NCBI GenBank assembly: GCA_030390025.1
Contig: CM059432.1
Coordinates: 85,438,001 to 85,502,000, forward strand
DNA: 64,000 nucleotides
Direction: 5' to 3'
DNA from: Squalus acanthias
Lineage: Eukaryota
The translations under genes were made by a program, and so were the position numbers. The notes beneath the pieces were generated by a model. That model saw only the letters and a list, made by a program, of their open reading frames with translations. It made no database searches and had not been told where the DNA came from. This document shows, piece after piece, positions 6,621 to 64,000 of the stretch. Numbering within the stretch: the stretch's first letter is position 1; each line of letters starts with the position of its first letter.

Positions 6621-6757
6621 CAATGGTATTACCATCGCCGAATCCCCCACTATCAACATCCTGGGGGTCACCATTGACCAGAAACTTAACTGGACCAGCC
6701 ACATAAATACTGTGGCAACAAGAGCAGGTCAGAGGCTGGGTATTCTGTGGTGAGTGA
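6621..6757 (+). mobile_element. Fragment of the third LINE family (same as 16860-17692)
   Basis: Closely matches about 17005-17122. Confidence 0.75.
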
Positions 6758-7530
6758 TGGGACCCGTATCCTAGCGGAAAGGGTAAATAGGGAAGTGGCA
6801 AAGGCTTTAAACTAGTAAGATGGGGAGAGGGAACTACAAGAAATGGAACCAGCCTAAATATAAACAAAACAGGAAAAGAGAACATCGGAAAAAATAAAGT
6901 AAGGGAGGACATTCATGGCAAGGGAATAAATAGAGTTATTGAACAGAAGTCTAAAAAGATGGTTAAACATAAAGTGAGAGGAAATCCTATTAAAAATGAG
7001 TTAAACTGTCTGTACAGCAATGCACACAGTGTCCGTAATAAAACAGGAGAGCTGGAGGCAATCATATGTTGCGAGGAACCAGACATAGTAGGGATTACTG
7101 AGACATGGCTACAGAAAAATCAGGACTGGGAATTAAACATTGCAGGGTATAACATATTTAGAAAAGATAGGGAGGGAAAAAGGAAAGGTGGAGTAGCTGT
7201 ACTTATTAGGGATAACGTAATGGCAGTGGAAAAAAGTGACACAGATATCAGCAAGACAAAAATAGAATCCATATGGATAGAGATAAAAGATAATAAAGGA
7301 TCGATTGCACTAATAGGCGTAGTCTACAGACCACCTAATAGTGGAAGGGAGGTGGAGGAAGAAATATGCAGACAAATTAGGGAAATGAGTAAAAAACATA
7401 GAATAATAATCATGTGGGATTTCAACTACCCCGATATTAATTGGACAGAAGTAGGTAAAGGGGATAAGGGAATGGAGTTCCTACAATGTGTACAGAACTC
7501 CTTTCTAACCCAATATGTAAAAAGCCCTTG
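6758..7530 (+). mobile_element. CR1 fragment: ORF1 end, junction and ORF2 apurinic-like endonuclease
   Basis: ORF1 end ...KALN*; LYSNAHSVRNK, GITETW, GVVYRPP, DFNYP. Confidence 0.85.
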
Positions 7531-16859: not shown

Positions 16860-17692
16860 TGCCAGGAAGATCAACTAAATCTCGACCATTCTGTAGCTCT
16901 TGGCACACCTACTTACCAATTATTCAAGTGCTAGGCAATGACCATTTCTAACAAGAGAGAGTCTAGCCACCTCCTCTTGACATTCAATAGGATTATCATA
17001 ATAGGAATCCCCCACTATCAACATCCTGGGGGGTCACCATTGACCAGAAACTTAACTGGATCAGCCACATAAATACTGTGACTACAAGAGCAGGTCAGAG
17101 GCTGGGTATTCTGCAGTGAGTGACTCACCTCCTGACTCCCCAAAGCCTTTCCACCTTCTACAAGGCACAATTCAGGAGTGTGATGGAATACTCTCCACTT
17201 GCCTGGATGAGTGCAGTTCCAACAGCACTCAAGAAGCTCGACACCATCCAAGACAAAGCAGCCTGCTTGATTGGCACCCCATCCACCACCTTAAACATTC
17301 ACTCCCTCCACCACCGGCGCACCGTGGCTGCAGTACCATCTACAAGATGCACTGCAGCAACTCCCCAAGGCTAGTTCGACAGTACCTCCCAAATCCATGA
17401 CCTCTACCACCTAGAAGGACAAGGGCAGCAGGCGCATGGGAACACCACCACCTGCAAGTTCTCGTACAAGTCACAGACCCTCCTGACTTGAAAATATATC
17501 GACGTTCCTTCATCATTGCTGGGTCAAAATCCTGGAATTCCCTCCCTAACAGCACTGTGGGAGTAACTTCATTTCACGGACTGCAGTGGTTCAAGAAGGC
17601 GGCTCACCACCACCTTCTCGAGGGCAATTAGGTATGGGCAATAAATGCTGGCCTTGCTGGCGATGCCCACATCCCATGAATGAATAAAAAAA
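16860..17692 (+). mobile_element. Third LINE family (CR1/L2 group), 3' end with poly-A tail
   Basis: YKAQFRSVMEYSPLAW, LKKLDTIQDKA; ends CCCACATCCCATGAATGAATAAAAAAA; second copy at 56083-56692. Confidence 0.8.
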
Positions 17693-18045: not shown

Positions 18046-19803
18046 TTATTCAGAGTCATCTGGTTCATCAGAAATATCCGTGCCAGCTGGGTCATCAGGA
18101 TCACGCAGTTCCACCGATTCTTCAGGCACTTCCGCTGCTGCGACTCTTTTGGAAGCTTTCTTAAACATGTTGCGGATGTCGGTTTGCTTAGTGGACTCTT
18201 GCCTTTTCTGTAGAAAGGTGGAATGCAGAATATGGAGTTGCATAACTTCTTGTGCAGTGTAGCAATTCTGCCTTTCAGCAAATTTGAGGATTGTAGAAAA
18301 TCCTTCTGCAGCTTTAGCCCAAGAAATCTTCTCTTCTTCAGAAATCTCATCCTCTTCACTTTCCATCTCGCTTTCCTTTTCTTTCTTTGGATTCAAAACA
18401 TTCTCAATTATTTCATCATCACTTAGCATATGCACAACACCAACTTCTCTATCTGCATCAACCCACTGCTCGATATCACTTTCACTGAGGTGATGTAGAG
18501 GGTTTGCTGGGCCTGCATTTTTCACCATTCCAGCCATTTCCATTATTGTACTCTTCTTGGGACGAACACTGAACCCATGAAATTCCTCCTCTGAAGAAGA
18601 ACCTTCAGCAAACATTACAGAAGGCCACAATTTGCGCCAGGCTTGCCTCAGAGTGTGACCTTTCACCAATTTCCAGGAACATGCAACATTATAGATGGCA
18701 TCTTTAATATTGTATTCCTTCTGCAAATCTTGAATATTCTCATCTTGGCTTAGCAGTTTACGTAGGAAGTCTTTCTTGTAATGACACTTCAGATTTTGGA
18801 TAACGCCCTGGTCCATGGGTTGGATGAGAGAAGTTACATTTGGTGGCAAATAAATGGTGAAAATATTTCCCGAAACCAACTGGGATTCATGCGGATGGGC
18901 TCTGCAATTATCAAGCAATAAAATGCATTTGCTATCTTCAGGTTTCCCTATTCTGCGGAAATGTTCCTTCACAGATGGAACAAAAATATGATGGAACCAA
19001 TCGGAGAAGATTTCCTTATCCATCCAAGCATTTTTTTGAGCTTTGTACTCAACAGGTAAGTGCCTCACATTTTTAAATGCACGGGGATTTTTATACTTCC
19101 CGATAACAAGAAGTTTAACCCGGTGTGATCCAGCAGCGTTCGCACATGTTAGCACGGTTACACGATCTTTATTTTTCTTGTAACCTGAAGCATTAGCCTC
19201 ACTAGCCCCAGCAAGCGTTGATTCTGGCAAAAACCTCCAAAACAAGCCAGTTTCATCGGCATTGTAGATCTGTGCTGGCGACAAATCATGTTGCTGCACA
19301 ATCCGATTGAAATAATTGCAGTATTCTTCTGCGGCTTCGTGATCAGCTGATTTCTTCTCCCCGGAAATAACGAGTCGTCGTATCCCGTGCCGTAACTTGA
19401 AGCACGTTAGCCATCCATCGGAGAAAGCACACTTGTCAGTGAGCTCCATCCTATCGTAGAATTCCTTCGCTTTCTCGATGAGCATGGGTCCGGAAATTGG
19501 AACACCCTCTGAACGCTTAAGAGAAAACCATTCATAAAGCACGGTATCCAGCTCTTCAAGCTTAGGCTTACGAAGCGTACGCCGTTTCTCTACACTCTTG
19601 CATGTCTCCGAGCTTGAATAAAACTTGAGCAGCTTATCCTTCTGCGATTTGATGTCGTAGATTGTTGACGAACCGATTTTGAATTCATTCATAATGTTGA
19701 TACGCTTCTCTCCCCTTTCTAGTCGTTGGCATATCTCGATTTTCTGTTTTAAAGTTAAGACCACTCTCTTCCTTTTGCTTGGACCAGCTTTTGGGAATTC
19801 CAT
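18046..19803 (-). CDS. Tigger-type transposase, 585 aa from first ATG (CENP-B-type HTHs plus DD32D catalytic domain)
   Basis: Uninterrupted [45 protein letters not shown]-32 residues-QPMDQG; resembles the JRK/JRKL/TIGD2 lineage. Confidence 0.95.
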
Positions 19804-19866
19804 AATGCAAGATGGAGGAGATAATTGCCGATGAAGATGGAAAGACACACAGAACAATGGTGGCTA

Positions 19867-20240
19867 GGAAGAGACTACCAGCAGCGTGGCAGACACACAG
19901 TAAAATGGTGTATCAGAAGAGACTACAGTACCAGCAGCGTGGCAGACACACAGCAAAATGGTGGATCAGAAGAGACTACAGTACCAGCAGCGTGGCAGAC
20001 ACACAGTAAAATGGTGTATCAGAAGAGACTACAGTACCAGCAGCGTGGGAGACACACAGCAAAATGGTGGATCAGAAGAGACTACAGTACCAGCAGCGTG
20101 GCAGACACACAGTAAAATGGTGTATCAGAAGAGACTACAGTACCAGCAGCGTGGGAGACACACAGCAAAATGGTGGATCAGAAGAGACTACCAGCATCGT
20201 GGGAGACACCCAGCAAAATGGCCGATCCGAAGAGACTCCA
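19867..20240. repeat. 53-bp tandem array with alternating A/B variants, upstream of the Tigger ATG
   Basis: Units start at 19915, 19968, 20021, 20074, 20127 and 20180; CAGTAAAATGGTGTATC alternates with CAGCAAAATGGTGGATC. Confidence 0.95.
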
Positions 20241-22087
20241 GGCAGCGCGGGAGAATCTACTCATGCTACTGCAATGTTTCGGACTTGCGACAGCGCCAGG
20301 AGGCCGAGTAGTGGCACTTTTGAAAAGTACCCCTACTGACTAAATCGGCGTTCGCGGACTCGGACTCGGACTCGGGATCGGCAACATTGCCGGTTATTTG
20401 AGAGGAGTTTTCGGAGCACTCGGCGTTCGCGGAGACTCGACTGCGACTCGGCAACATTGCCGGTTATTTGAGAGGAGTTTTCGGAGGATGATTTTTGCCG
20501 GTTAAGCGAGAATTCCGGTTATTTGGGTGCCGGATAAACGAAAGTTTCCTGTAATTGGGGATTTGATAGCCAGGGGGACAGACAGGCAGTTCTGCCACCG
20601 TCGACGTGAGATCCGTATGCTGTGTTACCTCCCTGGTGCCAGGGTAAGGCATATCACGGAGAGGGTGCAATAAATTCTGCGGGAGGAAAGGGAAGAGCCA
20701 GAAGTCGTGGTCCATGTCGGAACATTGGGAGGAAGAGGGTTGAGTTCCTGCAGTCAGAGTTTAAGGAGCTAGGGAGCAAGTTAAAAAGCAGAACCTCAAA
20801 GGTAATAATCTCTGGATTACTCCCAGTGCCATGCATTAGTGAGCGTAGAAATAGGAGGATATGGCAGGTTAATGCGTGGCTAGAGACATGGCGCAGGAGG
20901 GAGGGCTTCAGATTCCTGGGATGTGGGACCAGTTCTGTAGCAGGAGAGACCTGTTCAAGATGGACGGGTTGCACTTGAATAGAGCTGGGACCAAAATCCT
21001 TGCGGGCAGGTTAACTAGTGCTGTGGGGGAGGATTTTAACTAATTTGGCAGGGGGTTGGCACCAAGATGTAGTATTAAAAAGTAGAAATAAGGTGCAGAG
21101 AGGACTGGGAGAGACAGTTAGAGTTAGAAATAATACAGAATTAGGTGGGATCATAGAAAATACAAAGAGGTCTAAGTTAGGTTTGGAGTACATGTCTGTA
21201 AATGCACGAAGTGTGGTTAATAAGGTTGATGAGCAGCAGGCACAAATAGCCACGTGGGCATATGATGTAGTGGCCATAACTGAGACCTGGCTCAAAAAAA
21301 GCGAGCATTGGATGCTTAATATTCCTGGGTACAAGATATTCAGGAAAGATAGTGAAGGAAAAAAAGGAGGAGGGGTAGCAGTTTTGATGAAGAAAAATAT
21401 TACAGTGCTAGAAGGAGAGAATGTCCTTGAGGAGTCAAAGACAGAATCTATTTGGTTGGTGTTAAAGGAGTTATTACACTACTTGGTGTATTTTATAGGA
21501 TACCAAAAAGTGGGAAATGAGATAGAGGAGCAGATATGCAAAGACATTACTGAGAGGTACAAGAAATATAGAGTTGTGATAATAGTGGACTTTAACTACC
21601 CCAATATTGAACGGGGCAGTGATTGTGTTAAGGGCAGAGAAGGGAGGAATTTCTGAAATGTGCTCAGGAGAATTTTCTTGATCGTTAATGTTTACTGCCC
21701 AAAGAGGAAGAAGGCATTACTGGATCTAGTCCTGGGAAATGAAGTGGTTCAAGTGGAGAATGTCACAGTCAGGGTGCATCTCAGGAATAGTGATCATAGT
21801 ATCGTAAGGTTTAGATTAGCTATGGAGAAGGTAAAGGAGCAATCTAGAATAAAAATACTTAACTGGAGGAATGCTAATTTCAGCAAATTAAGGAAGGATC
21901 TGACCCGGGTAAATTGGAGTCAAAGATTGGCAGGCAGAAATGTAATGGAGCAATGGGCGACCTTTAAAAAGGAGATGGTTCGGATACTGTCTAGGTACAT
22001 TCCTAGAAGGGGGAAAGGGAGAGCAACCAAAGTCAGAGCTCCCTGGATGATGAAGGATGAAGCAGAAAAAGGGGGCGTATGACAGAT

Positions 22088-39184: not shown

Positions 39185-40296
39185 CCTCAACCAGACCTCC
39201 TCATTCATCAACAGTCCCACCCTCCTTACCTTTCCTCTATCACTGACCATCACATCGTCCTCTTTCCGACAGAGGGTGACCTTGAGCAGCTCTGGGCCTA
39301 GAAGGCCCAGCTTCAGACTGCACCATCTCGGCCTGAGCTGCAGCATTCTGGGCTGGCTGGTTGATAGGCAAAAACAAGGGCATTGGCGGAGTGGCAGTTT
39401 TGGGAGCAGGCATGCTGTCATCCTGAGAGAAGACAGCAGGTTCGTGCTCCATGGAGTTACTGCCACTCTCCCGGGGCAGCGCCTCAGCAATCCTACTGAT
39501 CTGTTCGAGAACAGATTGATGGATTCTGTGACTCCCTGGAAGCCCCTTTGAACAGTGATATCCAGAGCCATGATGGCAGCAGTCTGGGCTTGCAAGGCAG
39601 CAGTCTGGGCTTGCAAGGCAGCAGTCTGGGCTTGCCAGGTAGCACTCAGATCTTTGATGGAAGCTGTTTGTGCTGTAATGGAAGCTGTGACATCAGCCAT
39701 CAGATGCTGCATCATGGTGGATTCCACAGGTGTGCTGATGGTCGTGACCACCCGTTCCATGTTGGAGAGGATGGACTCCAAGGTCTACACAAAGCCCTGT
39801 GCCAAGTTGCTGCTGGACTCCTCCATGCTCAACATTGAGCGCAGGCTTTTTGGCAGGCTTTCCAGTGCACCAAACATTTTGTTGTGCATACCCATCAGCG
39901 TTCTTCTGTAGCCTAGCCCATTGAAGTCCTCATCTGACTCCTCTGCAGCAGAACTAGCATGTGAAATCACCCTACGGCAAGCTGGCACCTGCGCTATCCT
40001 TTCCCCCTGCCTTGGCTCCTGCGCACTGGTGCCCGGTGTCTCACCACATGCAGATCCCTCCTCTATCCTAGCCGCTAAAATATGCGCAGTGTTAGTGTCT
40101 GAGCTGGTGGCTGCGAGGCTAAGATCGAGTGACGGTGTCTCTTCATCTTCAATGTCTTCTTCCTCTTCCTCCACTGACTGGGAAGGCTCCAATTCTCGGG
40201 TATCTGAAATGAAATAGGGACAAGGGTTGCATTGTGGTGAGGGGAGAGGAGAAAGTAAGAAGTGCATGCTTACACCATCTGCAGCTTCTAAGTCAT

Positions 40297-40597
40297 GCAG
40301 GCATGCTGTCATCCTGAGAGAAGACAGCAGGTTCGTGCTCCATGGAGTTACTGCCACTCTCCCGGGGCAGCGCCTCAGCAATCCTACTGATCTGTTCGAG
40401 AACAGATTGATGGATTCTGTGACTCCCTGGAAGCCCCTTTGAACAGTGATATCCAGAGCCATGATGGCAGCAGTCTGGGCTTGCAAGGCAGCAGTCTGGG
40501 CTTGCAAGGCAGCAGTCTGGGCTTGCCAGGTAGCACTCAGATCTTTGATGGAAGCTGTTTGTGCTGTAATGGAAGCTGTGACATCAGCCATCAGATG
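40297..40597 (+). repeat. 301-bp direct duplicate of 39406-39706
   Basis: No differences found by eye; offset 891 bp. Confidence 0.95.
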
Positions 40598-58762: not shown

Positions 58763-60219
58763 TGGATAATCTATCATCAGAACTCCACTCTATAAGTAAC
58801 CTGGAGTAATTAAAAGCACAGCCAGTCAACAAATGAAAATTAGGAGCACTGAGTAGAGGTGCTCAAAAGTCAATATTGTGATTTTATAGATTTTTGTTGC
58901 TGGTCCTCATCATTGAAAAGAGGATAGAATATGTATTCCTGTATATCTTGCGTTGTATGAACACTTTCTGTTAGACAGAAAAAAAACACTTTATTATGAG
59001 AATCTTGTATGTTTTGTAGCTAGGCCAATGGGATGCACATTCATCATCATCATTCTTTAAATGGTGAACTCAGCCATGAGGGAAAGGCACAAGCTGAATC
59101 AGTGTGCATATGCATATAGGGGGGCAAAAATCAGAAAGTGAGTCATCTGGACCACTCTCCTGATGGCCAGTTATAGAGTGGCAATATCAGTGATCAGGAA
59201 GGCGTTTCGATTCATGGGGCACTGGCACCAGTACTGGTGAAAAAGGGAGCTGTTCTGTTGGGAGGGACTCCACATAAACCGGGTTGGGACCAGTGTCCTG
59301 GCGAATCGAATAACAAGGGCTGCAGATAGGGCTTTAAACTAAAAAGGGGAGTGTCAGGTGAGGGGAATTTCGAAATCTAAAGAGAAAAGTCAAGGCAATG
59401 GAGCAGTGTAGCGATTTGGGTAAAAATAAGCAGTGTGACAGGAAGGGACAGAGAGTTTAACTGTAACAGTACTTCAGTGAATAAGGTGAAAGCAGGGAAT
59501 AATGGTAAAACATTTAAATTAAAGGCTCTTTTTTTGAATGCACGAAGCATTCGTAACAAGATAGATGAATTAGTTGCACAAATAGAGATAAATGGCTTTG
59601 ACGTAATAGCCATTACAGAGAAGTAGTGCAAGGTGACCAATGTTTAAGAAGGACAGACAAAAAGGAAAAGGAGGTGGCGTAGGGCTGTTAATAAGGGATG
59701 AGATCGGTACGGTAGAGATAAAAGATCTTGGCTTGGCAGATTGTGATGTAGAACTGGAATCAGTTTGGGTGGAGCTAAGAAACAGCAAAGGGCGGAAAAC
59801 ATTGGTGGGAGTTGTGTATAGGCCACCAAACAGTAGTGGAAATGTAGGGCACAGAATCAATCAAGAGATTAGAAGTGCATGTAACAAGGGCAATACGGTA
59901 ATCATGGGGGACTTTAATCTACATATTGACTGGGCAAATCAAATTACCCCTAATGGTGTGGAGGACAAATTCTTGGAATGCATGCGAGATGGTTTCCTGG
60001 ATCAGTATGTGGAGGAACCAACCAGGGGACAGGCTATTCTGGATCTGGTACTGTGTAATGAGAAAGGGCTAATCAATAATCTTGTGGTAAAGGGGCCTTT
60101 AGGGACAAGTGACCATAATATGATTGAATTTTATATTAAGTTTGAGAGTGATGTAGTCCAATCTGAAACTAAGGTCTTCAATCTAAACAGAGGAAACTAC
60201 AAGGGTATGAGGGACAAGT

Positions 60220-63200
60220 GCTAGTCAGAGTAGAAATAGGAGGATATTTCAAATGAATACGTGGCTAGAGGAATGGTGCAATGGGGAGGGATTCAAATTC
60301 CTGGGACATTGGAACCGGTTCTGGGGGAGGTGGGACCAGTACAAACCGGATGGTCTGCACCTGGGCAGGGCCGGGACCGCTGTCCTAGGGGGAGTGTTTG
60401 CTAGTGCTGTTGGGGAGGGTTTAAACTAAAATGGCAGGGGGTTGGGCACCTGAGCAGGGAGACAGAGGAAAGAGTGTCAGGAAGGGACAGAAGGTATGGA
60501 TTAAAAGGTAAAGTGTTAAAAAAGGAAAAAGCAGGAACTAAGTGTCACAAAACATATTTGAAAGTTCTGTATCTGAATGCACGTAGCATTCGTAACAAAA
60601 TGGACGAGTTAACGGCACAAATAACTACGTATGGGTATGATCTTGTGGCCATTACAGAAACATGGCTGCAGGGTGACAACGACTGGGAATTAAATATGCC
60701 AGGGTATTTAACAATCAGGAAGGACAGGCAGGAAGGAAGGGGAGGTGAGGTGGCTATGTTAATAAAGGAAGGAATCACTGTAATACAGAGAAATGATATT
60801 GGGTCAAAGGATCAGGATAATGAAACAGTTTGGGTGGAGATAAGGAATAATAAGGGGAAAAAAACACTAGTGGGAGTAGTATATAGGCCTCCTAATAGTT
60901 GCAACTCTGCTGGAAGAAGTATTAATCAGGAAATAGTTGGGGCATGTAATAAGGGAACAGCTATAATTATGGGGGATTTTAACTATCATATTAACTGGAC
61001 AAATCAAATTGGGCAGGGCAGCCTTGAGGAAGAGTTTATTGAGTGTATTAGGGATGGATTTCTTGAGCAGTATGTAACTGATCCTACAAGGGGGCAAGCA
61101 ACCTTGGACCTGGTCCTGTGTAATGAGTCAGGATTAATTAATAATGTCCTAGTTAAGGATCCCCTTGGAATGAGTGACCATAACATGGTTGAATTCCATA
61201 TCCAATTAGAGGGTGAGAAGGTTGGTTCTCAAACAAGCGTACTGAGCTTGAATAAAGGAGACTATGATGGTATGAGAGCGGAATTGATTAAAGTGGACTG
61301 GGAAAATAGATTAAAGGGTAAGACGGTACATGAGAAGTGGTGTTCATTTAAGGAGTTATTTTACAACTTTCAAAAAACATATATTCCACTGAGGAAAAAA
61401 GAGTGTAAAAGAAATGACAGCCATCTGTGGCTAAGTAAAGAAATTAAGGATAGTATCCGACTAAAAACAAGGACATATAAGGTAGCCAAACTTAGTGGGA
61501 GGATAGAAGATTGGGAAGTATTCAAAAGACAGCAAAAAGTAACTAAAGGATTGATTAAGAAAGGGAAGATAGATTATGAAAATAAATTAGCAAAAAATAT
61601 GAAAAACAGATAGCAAGAGTTTCTATAGTTATATCAAAAGAAAAAGGGTGGCTGAGGCAAACGTAGGTCCCTTAGAGGATGAGACCGGGAAATTAATGGT
61701 GGGAAACATGGAGATGGCAAAAATGCTGAACAAATATTTTGTTTCAGTCTTTACGGTAGAGGACACTAAGAATATCCCAACACTGGACAAACAGGGGCCT
61801 CTGGGGGGAGGAGCTAAATACGATTAAAATCACGAAGGAATTGGTACTCAGTAAAATAATGGGACTCAAGGTGAATAAATCCCCTGGACCTGATGGCTTA
61901 CATCCTAGGGTCTTGAGGGAAGTGGCAGTAGGGATTGTGGATGCTTTGGTAATAATTTTCCAAAATTCCCTGGACTCAGCAAAGGTCCCGGCAGATTGGA
62001 AAACTGCTAATGTAACACCCTTATTTAAAAAGGGTAGTAGGCAGAAGGCTGGAAATTATAGACCAGTTAGCCTAACATCTGTGGTGGGTAAAATTTTGGA
62101 GTATATTATTAAGGAGACAGTAACGGAACATTTAGATAAACATAATTTAATAGGACAAAGTCAGCATGGCTTTATGAAGGGGAAGTCATGTCTGACAAAT
62201 TTGCTTGAGTTCTTTGAGGACATAACGTACAGGGTGGATAAAGGGGAACCAGTGGACGTAGTGTATTTAGACTTCCAGAAGGCATTCGACAAGGTGCCAC
62301 ATAAAAGATTATTGCTCAAGATAAAAAATCACTGGATTGGGGGTAATATTCTGGCATGGGTGGAGGATTGGTTATCTAACAGGAAGCAGAGAGTTGGGAT
62401 AAATGGTTCATTCTCGGACTGGCAACCAGTAGCCAGTGGTGTTCCGCAGGGGTCGGTGCTGGGTCCCCAACTCTTTACAATCTATATTAACGATTTGGAG
62501 GAGGGGATCGAGTGTAACATATCAAAGTTTGCAGATGATACAAAGATGGAAGGGAAAGTAGAAAGTGAGGAGGACATAAAAAACCTACAAGGGGAAAGAG
62601 ACAGGCTGGGTGAGTGGGCGGAGATTTGGCAGATGCAATACAATATTGGAAAATGTGAGGTTATGCACTTTGGCAGGAAAAATCAGAGAGCAAGTTATTA
62701 TCTTAATGGCGAGAAACTGGAAAGTACTGCAGTACAAAGGGATCTGGGGGTCCTAGTGCAAGAAAATCAAAAAGTTAGTATGCAGGTGCAGCAGGTGATC
62801 AAGAAGGCCAACGGAATGTTGGCTTTTATTGCTAGGGGGATAGATTATAAAAACAGGGAGGTATTGCTGCAGTTATATAAGGTATTGGTGAGACCGCACC
62901 TGGAATACTGCATACAGTTTTGGTGTCCATACTTAAGAAAAGACATACTTGCTCTCGAGGCAGTACAAAGAAGGTTCACTCAGTTAATCCCGGGAATGAG
63001 GGGGTGGACATATGAGGAGAGGTTGAGTAGATTGGGACTCTACTCATTGGAGTTCAGAAGAATGAGAGGCAATCTTATTGAAACATATAAGATTGTGAAG
63101 GGGCTTGATCGGGTGGATGCGGTAAGGATGTTCCCAAGGATGGGTGAAACTAGAACTAGGGGGCATAATCTTAGAATAAGGGGCTGCTCTTTCAAAACTG

Positions 63201-63560
63201 AGATGAGGAGAAACTTCTTCACTCAGAGGGTAGTAGGTCTATGGAATTTGCTGCCCCAGGAAGCTGTGGAAGCTACATCATTAAATAAATTTAAAACAGA
63301 AATAGACAGTTTCCTAGAAGTAAAGGGAATTAGGGGTTACGGGGAGCGGGCAGGAAATTGGACATGAAGCTGAGTTCGGATCGGTCAAGGCCCTGTGGGT
63401 GGCGGAGCGGGCCCAGGGGCTGAGTGGCCGGGTCCTGCTCCTACTTCTTGTGTTCTTTAGATTTGAGGTTAGGATCAGATCAGCCATGATCTTATTGTAT
63501 GGCGGAGCAGGCTCGAGGGGCCGATTGGCCTACTCCTGCTCCTATTTCTTATGTTCTTAT
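60220..63560 (+). mobile_element. Young 5'-truncated CR1 (ORF1 C-terminus, near-intact ORF2, doubled 3' UTR)
   Basis: AAGT on both flanks; ORF1 FKFLGHWNRFWGRWDQYKPDGLHL...GLN*; ORF2 in 379-aa and 508-aa pieces. Confidence 0.93.
60420..63367 (+). pseudogene. CR1 ORF2 endonuclease-reverse transcriptase, broken by about two frameshifts near A/G runs (about 61600 and 61805)
   Basis: [60 protein letters not shown]. Confidence 0.9.
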
Positions 63561-64000
63561 AAGTTGGCCATGGTAGATTGGGAGACTACACTGAAAGGTA
63601 TGAAGGTGGACATACAATGGCTAACATTCAAGGAAATAATGCATAATTTGCAACAAACATATATTCCTCTGGGGCATAAAAACCCAAAAGAAAAAGTGAT
63701 CCAACCATGGCTAACAAAAGAAATTAAAGCTAGTATTAAGTCAAAGGAGGAAGCTTATAAAGTTGCCAGAAAAAGCGGTCAGCCTGAGGATTGGGATCTT
63801 TTTAGAAATCAGCAAAGGGGGACCAAGAAATTGATAAAGAAAGGGAAAATGGAATATGAGCACAAACTAGCGAAAAATATAAAAATGGATTGTAAAAGCT
63901 TCTATAGGTATGTGAAAAGGAAAAGACTGGCGAAGGTAAATGTAGGTCCTTTACAGTCAGAGAAGGGAGCATTTATAATGGGGAATGAGGAAATGGAAAA

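Follow-up and report, generated by a model that had tools for sequence, protein, structure and literature searches.

CR1 LINEs of Squalus acanthias probably join ORF1 to ORF2 by a -1 ribosomal frameshift on a classic slippery heptamer at the end of ORF1, a reading to which we give a probability of roughly 0.8. In the window, by which we mean the whole analyzed stretch of 64,000 nucleotides, all four CR1 copies that keep the junction end ORF1 with T-TTA-AAC-stop, three of them exactly and one with a single mismatch. Relatives of these elements swap among classic slip sequences, and the copying enzyme is therefore most likely an ORF1-ORF2 fusion made through a -1 slip. Under this model, most ribosomes would translate ORF1 and terminate at its stop, and a small share would slip back by one base on U_UUA_AAC, the tRNAs re-pairing from UUA-AAC to UUU-AAA; the slipped ribosomes would miss the stop and cross a variable linker into the endonuclease and the reverse transcriptase. 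The output would be a fusion protein at a low, fixed ratio, much like Gag-Pol. That the slippage occurs, its efficiency and the role of the fusion as the working enzyme are what we infer from comparing sequences.

The window elements are esterase-type CR1 LINEs of a cartilaginous fish, and the four copies are distinct CR1 families with endonuclease identities of 35-61%. A sequence-only reading had described three of the junctions, and its motifs are all present: GCT TTA AAC TAG at 6804-6815, with the heptamer at 6806-6812 of the window sequence; GCT TTA AAC TAA at 59331-59342, in a third family; and GAT TTT AAC TAA at 21032-21043, the decayed junction of a second family, whose T TTT AAC, as it stands, is non-canonical. 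A fourth family carries GGT TTA AAC TAA at 60418-60429, with a second heptamer, G_GGU_UUA, one codon before U_UUA_AAC (Table 1; copies are named by the first base of the heptamer). A tblastn search of the 64-kb window with the endonuclease N-terminus found four places, all of them these ORF1/ORF2 junctions, so the junctions first described had not been picked from a larger set. Where the copies share a residue that has a degenerate codon, they use the same codon about half of the time (37/73, 33/69 and 23/55), counts that leave out the pairs with the poorly aligned 59333 copy.

The identity of the elements is clear from their domains. PF03372 (APE endonuclease) was found in all four copies and PF00078 (reverse transcriptase) at 61760-63364, behind the fourth junction. 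CR1-group LINEs end in 8-base repeats and have no poly(A), and the fourth copy ends in about two 8-base units (63547-63561). In five of six matches, the ORF1 tail (60253-60426) aligns at 79-88% identity with proteins that bear PF13472, its best named matches being SGNH-esterase proteins of the sawshark Pristiophorus; named proteins of the wider esterase ORF1 family come from sharks, rays and a chimaera, and birds and turtles have relatives at 31% identity, known from proteins only. A profile of the family matches the ORF1 esterase of ZfL2-1 (PDB 4C1B) at E 3e-43. The 6806 copy is truncated on its 5' side: the sequence just 5' of its ORF1 piece (6640-6757) matches another repeat at 17005-17123, and in contigs from other runs, loose ends extend the family into the DGLHL motif. 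Three pieces of CR1, tandem or nested, occupy the region 59150-63998; at about 60215 the 60420 copy interrupts the 59333 copy, and endonuclease sequence resumes at 63561, right behind the tail, which looks like one CR1 inserted into another. The window also contains an uninterrupted 605-codon Tigger/pogo-type transposase frame on the minus strand (18046-19863; CENP-B_N, HTH_Tnp_Tc5, DDE_1), adjoined by a tandem repeat with a unit of about 50-100 bases (19843-20254), and a 301-base direct repeat of 100% identity (39406-39706 and 40297-40597).

Table 1. Features of the ORF1/ORF2 junctions of CR1 copies in the window
Feature	Position	Strand	Remark
CR1 ORF1 3' end, last helix of the SGNH esterase, KALN-stop	6758..6815	+	copy 5'-truncated here
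Slippery heptamer U_UUA_AAC, in phase with ORF1	6806..6812	+	
ORF1 stop TAG, immediately 3' of the heptamer; second stop, TAA, next	6813..6815	+	
G-run GGGG-AGA-GGG, candidate stimulator or Gly-rich start of a transframe peptide	6822..6831	+	
Stop-free -1-frame linker of 69 codons, heptamer to endonuclease	6812..7018	+	
In-frame ATG, 20 residues before the endonuclease Asn	6959..6961	+	out-of-frame ATGs earlier at 6820, 6843 and 6915
APE endonuclease domain of ORF2, 3' side cut off	7001..7528	+	PF03372, E 3e-9
Decayed junction T TTT AAC TAA, second family; ORF2 now in +1, following G-run one base short	21034..21043	+	
Junction T TTA AAC TAA, third family; -1 frame reaches FLNARS, one stop, no Met	59333..59342	+	
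Fourth-family junction, with heptamers G_GGU_UUA and U_UUA_AAC in tandem, followed by TAA; endonuclease not preceded by a Met	60417..60429	+	
ORF2 (endonuclease, reverse transcriptase) and 3' end of the fourth copy	60426..63561	+	one break near 61613-61760; 8-base repeat tail

The offset between the two reading frames is not random. ORF2 lies in the -1 frame in three of the four window copies and in all four distant slippery-site loci with ORF2 in view; the fourth window copy (21034) lacks one base. Between the heptamer and the first Asn of the endonuclease, the -1 frame runs for 69 codons with 0 stops in the 6806 copy, for 50 codons with neither stop nor Met in the 60420 copy and for 66 codons with one stop and no Met in the 59333 copy, where it is in phase with FLNARS as the sequence-only reading had it. 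The same reading had suggested that the 21034 copy lost one G, which fits what we see: its ORF2 is in +1, and the G-run behind the stop has one base fewer than that of the 60420 copy. Setting this copy aside, together with one distant locus (L021) whose sequence ends before ORF2, the -1 frame is open from the heptamer without a stop in six of seven undamaged junctions and with one stop in the seventh, and a start codon before the endonuclease is absent from four of the seven. Open linkers of this kind are rare in shuffled sequence (stop-free, 0.2% for 6806 and 1.4% for 60420; at most one stop, 1.6% for 59333). Given the codon usage of the window CR1 ORFs (2037 codons), Ala/Gly-Leu-Asn would be coded as T-TTA-AAC in about 2% of cases, and none of the 14 internal x-Leu-Asn pairs in these ORFs is coded so; the excess of TTA AAC over its synonymous codings is real. 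Canonical heptamers occur in phase at 13 of 2016 codon positions of the same ORFs, and the stretch where a -1 slip reaches ORF2 spans just 4-8 codons in the intact copies, of which there are three; a heptamer would fall there by chance in 3-5% of cases for each. Against the model stand, in the window, the one copy with a non-canonical heptamer and the one with a stop in its linker.

The strongest evidence comes from distant loci found without regard to the junction. Our search pattern covered the esterase core, about 110 codons upstream of the junction, and was thereby blind to it; it returned 3 + 32 + 13 = 48 loci, of which 24 are esterase LINE ORF1s and 15 have an unbroken ORF1 end. The 33 loci outside the junction counts comprise 24 chance matches, recognized by translation, 6 that end before the ORF1 stop and 3 broken ones (L018, L025 and L026). 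Viral contigs yielded no relatives, the three pattern matches there being unrelated. At five of the 15 loci, a canonical heptamer stands in phase at a place from which ORF2 can be reached by a -1 slip, with a chance of 5-11% each, and these are all five of the non-L2 loci with the ORF1 end in view; the remaining ten have an in-frame UGA-C junction. None of the five repeats the shark sequence: L021 and L032 read G GGA AAC TAG (G_GGA_AAC), in L022 and L033 the stop comes 40 bases after A AAA AAC (A_AAA_AAC), and the -1 frame becomes open 8 bases ahead of the heptamer, and L036 has A AAT TTT (A_AAU_UUU) 67 bases upstream of the stop. From the esterase tree and 4C1B, we take the hosts of the loci ending in Gly-Asn or Lys-Asn to be invertebrates and those of the UGA-C loci to be fish. 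L036 (contig DIYS01000258.1) is an animal LINE filed under a Saccharicrinis MAG, and two further animal LINE proteins, P0009 and P0304, appear as "SGNH hydrolase" records of Pseudomonas aeruginosa and Klebsiella pneumoniae; host contamination is the most likely source of the bacterial names.

Proteins extend the comparison to many more families. Among 120 short-tailed esterase proteins, 68 end in LN, 12 in GN and 2 in KN, the dipeptides encoded by U_UUA_AAC, G_GGA_AAC and A_AAA_AAC; KN stands at the end or shortly before it in 8 of the 120, and 32, as judged at the protein level only, have other endings, which tells against the model. That GN and KN endings mean G_GGA_AAC and A_AAA_AAC was predicted before the DNA was examined. 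In a bird-seeded search, 46 of 52 scorable new ORF1s end in ALN and 48 in LN, again as proteins. Because a T completes the heptamer, the residue before LN needs a T-ending codon: this residue has 10 identities in 45 representatives, in 14 of which all of its possible codons end in a pyrimidine, and it is never one of those lacking a T-ending codon (E, Q, K, M, W; 0/45 against a background of 20%, and 1/119 before clustering). The associated P of 4e-5 is nominal only, as tail positions -6 and -13 are likewise poor in these residues. The residue before GN is Gln in 9 of 12. Six further proteins (P0153, P0196, P0147, P0173, P0169 and P0184) have Gly-Phe, Phe-Leu, Asn-Phe or Asp-Phe near the end, and these tails, seen as proteins only, are compatible with G_GGU_UUU, U_UUU_UUA, A_AAU_UUY and G_GAU_UUU slip sites. 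Two frameshifted gene calls, P0055 and P0097, cross the junction in -1 and show Phe-Lys-Leu, the expected reading of T TTA AAC TA.

In an esterase tree of 81 rows, from which a trimming rule had dropped 8 of 75 chosen proteins, the LN families of vertebrates fall into a single clade (22 rows, support 100/97) and therefore count as one lineage, not as many independent cases. Shark-type ORF1s group with those of birds and turtles (100/97), apart from the ZfL2-1-like group, and L036 sits on a long branch of unsure placement. LN (P0101) and KN (P0171 and P0197) endings are nested within the GN clade of this protein tree, the endings again being read from proteins, which suggests that the heptamer has been exchanged more than once. 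The end of the protein changes and the slippery pattern stays, and the constraint is thus on the RNA. This was the central claim of the sequence-only reading, and it gains from the distant families, which change the residues and keep X_XXY_YYZ, and from the excess of TTA-AAC over synonymous codings.

A canonical -1 frameshift signal has two elements (PMC3542737, as far as its accessible part describes them), and the CR1 sites share its heptamers, placed in phase where the first ORF ends, and a polymerase gene in -1. They differ in that the carrier is a LINE, and in having a stop and a G-run instead of a local stem-loop or pseudoknot 5-9 bases downstream; lacking that structure, they fall outside strict membership of the class, and we describe them as working like it. 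A downstream hairpin or pseudoknot had been suggested, and folding gave no 3' stem-loop after the heptamer at the eight foldable sites (z -1.8 to +1.1), the scoring being one of local hairpins; nor did we see a shared long-range pairing partner at the same sites. The suggested G-quadruplex survives in part, as a weakly predicted two-tier form at two of nine slippery sites; no three-tier form was found at them. The G-runs that had been said to follow the stop are there: GGGG begins +7 to +11 after the heptamer in all four window copies and +7 to +13 in all six sites where the stop abuts the heptamer (of nine sites in all), with a chance of 5-14% each in the five tested. In run X4, a family related to that of the 6806 copy has a longer G-run at the same place. 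Our guess is that the G-run at +7 to +13 and the adjacent stop, the latter by making the A site slow, would together replace the usual 3' structure; the G-run may instead be code for the Gly-rich start of a transframe peptide. According to a 2016 paper (PMC5009743), no G-quadruplex was known to serve as a stimulator in nature.

The ten loci without a heptamer offer a parallel. ZfL2-1 is an L2 element (PMC4176376, in the part available), and all ten unbroken ZfL2-1-like loci (L007, L009, L010, L011, L014, L017, L020, L023, L030 and L031, with L010 and L031 being one family) end ORF1 with UGA-C. ORF2 is then in the frame of ORF1, with no stop in any of the nine that have the endonuclease in view and no Met in six of them. 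UGA-C is a leaky stop context and UGA-CUA the type II readthrough motif (the pertinent portion of PMC3542737); the junction of L030, which aligns end to end with the ZfL2-1 esterase at E 1e-67, is UGA-CUA. With their relatives, these loci form a separate clade of the esterase tree (100/99; nine of the ten loci are in the tree). The decayed copy L026 does not fit, with several stops of which the first is UGA-G. Folding of the 3' side gave z below -2 in two of the ten, and six chosen related loci have a candidate shared stem about 20 bases downstream, with a double change in 4 of 17 pairs. We consider stop-codon readthrough a candidate mechanism for the ZfL2-1-like L2 group; it would also yield an ORF1-ORF2 fusion and so supports the fusion as the conserved output. 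The ORF2 of ZfL2-1 is reportedly made by reinitiation, and the UGA-C finding invites a re-look at this element.

The in-frame ATG at 6959, which the sequence-only reading had raised as a caveat, is real and probably a trait of the whole family. Over 6756-7120, we compared contigs of three other runs (a raw-read run, X21, gave 2 reads), and among the 40 of 233 variants listed, none falls in 6801-6825 or 6959-6961, which makes both the heptamer and the ATG probable family traits. The ATG is in the frame of ORF2, 51 codons from the first base of the heptamer. That this family starts ORF2 there, through reinitiation, leaky scanning or a shorter RNA, with the heptamer a leftover, is in our view unlikely, as is the ATG as the sole entry to ORF2. 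Its position 20 residues before the Asn, its purine/G context and the lack of a listed variant among those 40 of 233 all suit a start codon, but the heptamer region is equally free of listed variants, three out-of-frame ATGs come earlier, and no stop interrupts the -1 frame over the 49 codons that separate heptamer and ATG, as in only 2% of shuffles. Differences within the family also respect the -1 frame: of 17 listed between heptamer and ATG, each tested alone, none makes a stop in -1 and three do in each of the other frames, and six are silent in -1 against one and three in the others. With the letter that predominates at 6800 in run X4, the -1 frame is closed two codons ahead of the heptamer, narrowing the entry to the heptamer itself. 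An in-frame Met before the Asn is found in 6806 (-20), L032 (-9 and -6), L036 (-12) and 21034 (-3), and is absent from 59333, 60420, L022 and L033. Perhaps the ATG at 6959 is just a Met codon of the linker; it might also be a further point of entry, used side by side with the frameshift.

A more general form of reinitiation, with termination at the ORF1 stop and a restart in -1 at an AUG or a nearby codon, would make the heptamer incidental or an aid to placement. The mechanism has been described for SART1 and L1 (PMC5972666, from the part accessible), and the stop that so often abuts the heptamer and the failure to find a 3' structure agree with it. We nevertheless hold it to be improbable, as it predicts neither the exchange among X_XXY_YYZ heptamers nor heptamers 40 or 67 bases before the stop (L022, L033 and L036); the -1 frames have no start codon in common, and in 6806 and 60420 the first AUGs to follow the stop lie outside the ORF2 frame. 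Constraint on the protein, or simple descent, would dispense with recoding altogether: the esterase might need a C-terminal Leu-Asn, or overlapping frames might fix the bases. The single clade of vertebrate LN families and the general conservation of the ORF1 tail (34 of 103 columns invariant) are what it would lead one to expect. Other clades, however, end in GN, KN or something unrelated, and the solved ZfL2-1 esterase ends in RTI; Leu-Asn does not dictate TTA-AAC, as the internal pairs demonstrate; and an overlap constraint needs -1 translation across the heptamer, for which the short open overlap has no upstream -1 start codon. With the G_GGA_AAC and A_AAA_AAC loci, this explanation is already largely refuted, and we regard it as very improbable. 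Least probable of all is joining at the RNA level, with ORF2 brought in frame by splicing at the AG of TAG or by polymerase slippage. TAG does follow the heptamer in 6806, L021 and L032, but three window copies have TAA and so offer no AG for splicing, no stop adjoins the heptamer at the KN loci, and, for slippage of a polymerase, three-base runs are short.

A -1 frameshift in a LINE would have a precedent. The ORF2 of Dictyostelium TRE5-A and TRE3-A is said to need one (PMC5911963, in the portion available); these are, like the CR1 elements here, APE-type two-ORF elements with an endonuclease and reverse transcriptase in ORF2, but they belong to a different group, and that portion of the source describes no esterase ORF1 for them. 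The same ORF1 type occurs in the esterase-ORF1 CR1 and L2 groups (PMC4120745; ZfL2-1, PDB 4C1B, PMC3905857; each as far as available), where the ZfL2-1-like group, unlike the window CR1s, has the in-frame UGA-C junction in place of a heptamer. We found no published frameshift proposal for CR1, which the 1997 papers on chicken and turtle CR1 or Repbase/Dfam may mention; the word "frameshift" is absent from the main texts of PMC3905857 and PMC4120745 and from PMC8665684, the accessible part of a 2016 frameshifting review does not mention CR1, and the available parts of PMC11835228, PMC1965478, PMC4255032 and PMC1947958 have nothing on the junction.

It has long been asked how LINEs translate ORF2, and reinitiation is the answer described for L1 and SART1. 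The ORF2 of human L1 is reportedly made in this way. Human L1 and silkworm SART1 resemble CR1 in having a dicistronic RNA and needing little ORF2, and they differ in that their ORF2 is a separate protein made by termination-reinitiation (PMC5972666, same portion), where we predict a fusion for CR1. Going beyond the window families, we lean slightly towards a wider picture in which the reverse transcriptase of esterase-type LINEs across animals would arise through recoding, as part of an ORF1-ORF2 fusion: in CR1, from sharks to birds, by a -1 slip on interchangeable heptamers, stimulated by the adjacent stop and G-run without a local fold, and in the sister L2 elements, close relatives of ZfL2-1 included, after a switch to UGA-C readthrough. 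If true, the LINE that is most abundant in birds would follow a strategy like that of Gag-Pol, work on recoding would gain a useful slip site that seemingly functions without local structure, and there would be a possible natural case of a G-run or G-quadruplex as stimulator. A conserved -1 frameshift would amount to a 7-base switch that sets the ORF1:ORF2 ratio of CR1, the working enzyme would carry the esterase and its N-terminal domains, and annotations or engineered CR1 assays that start ORF2 at an internal ATG would be using the wrong protein.
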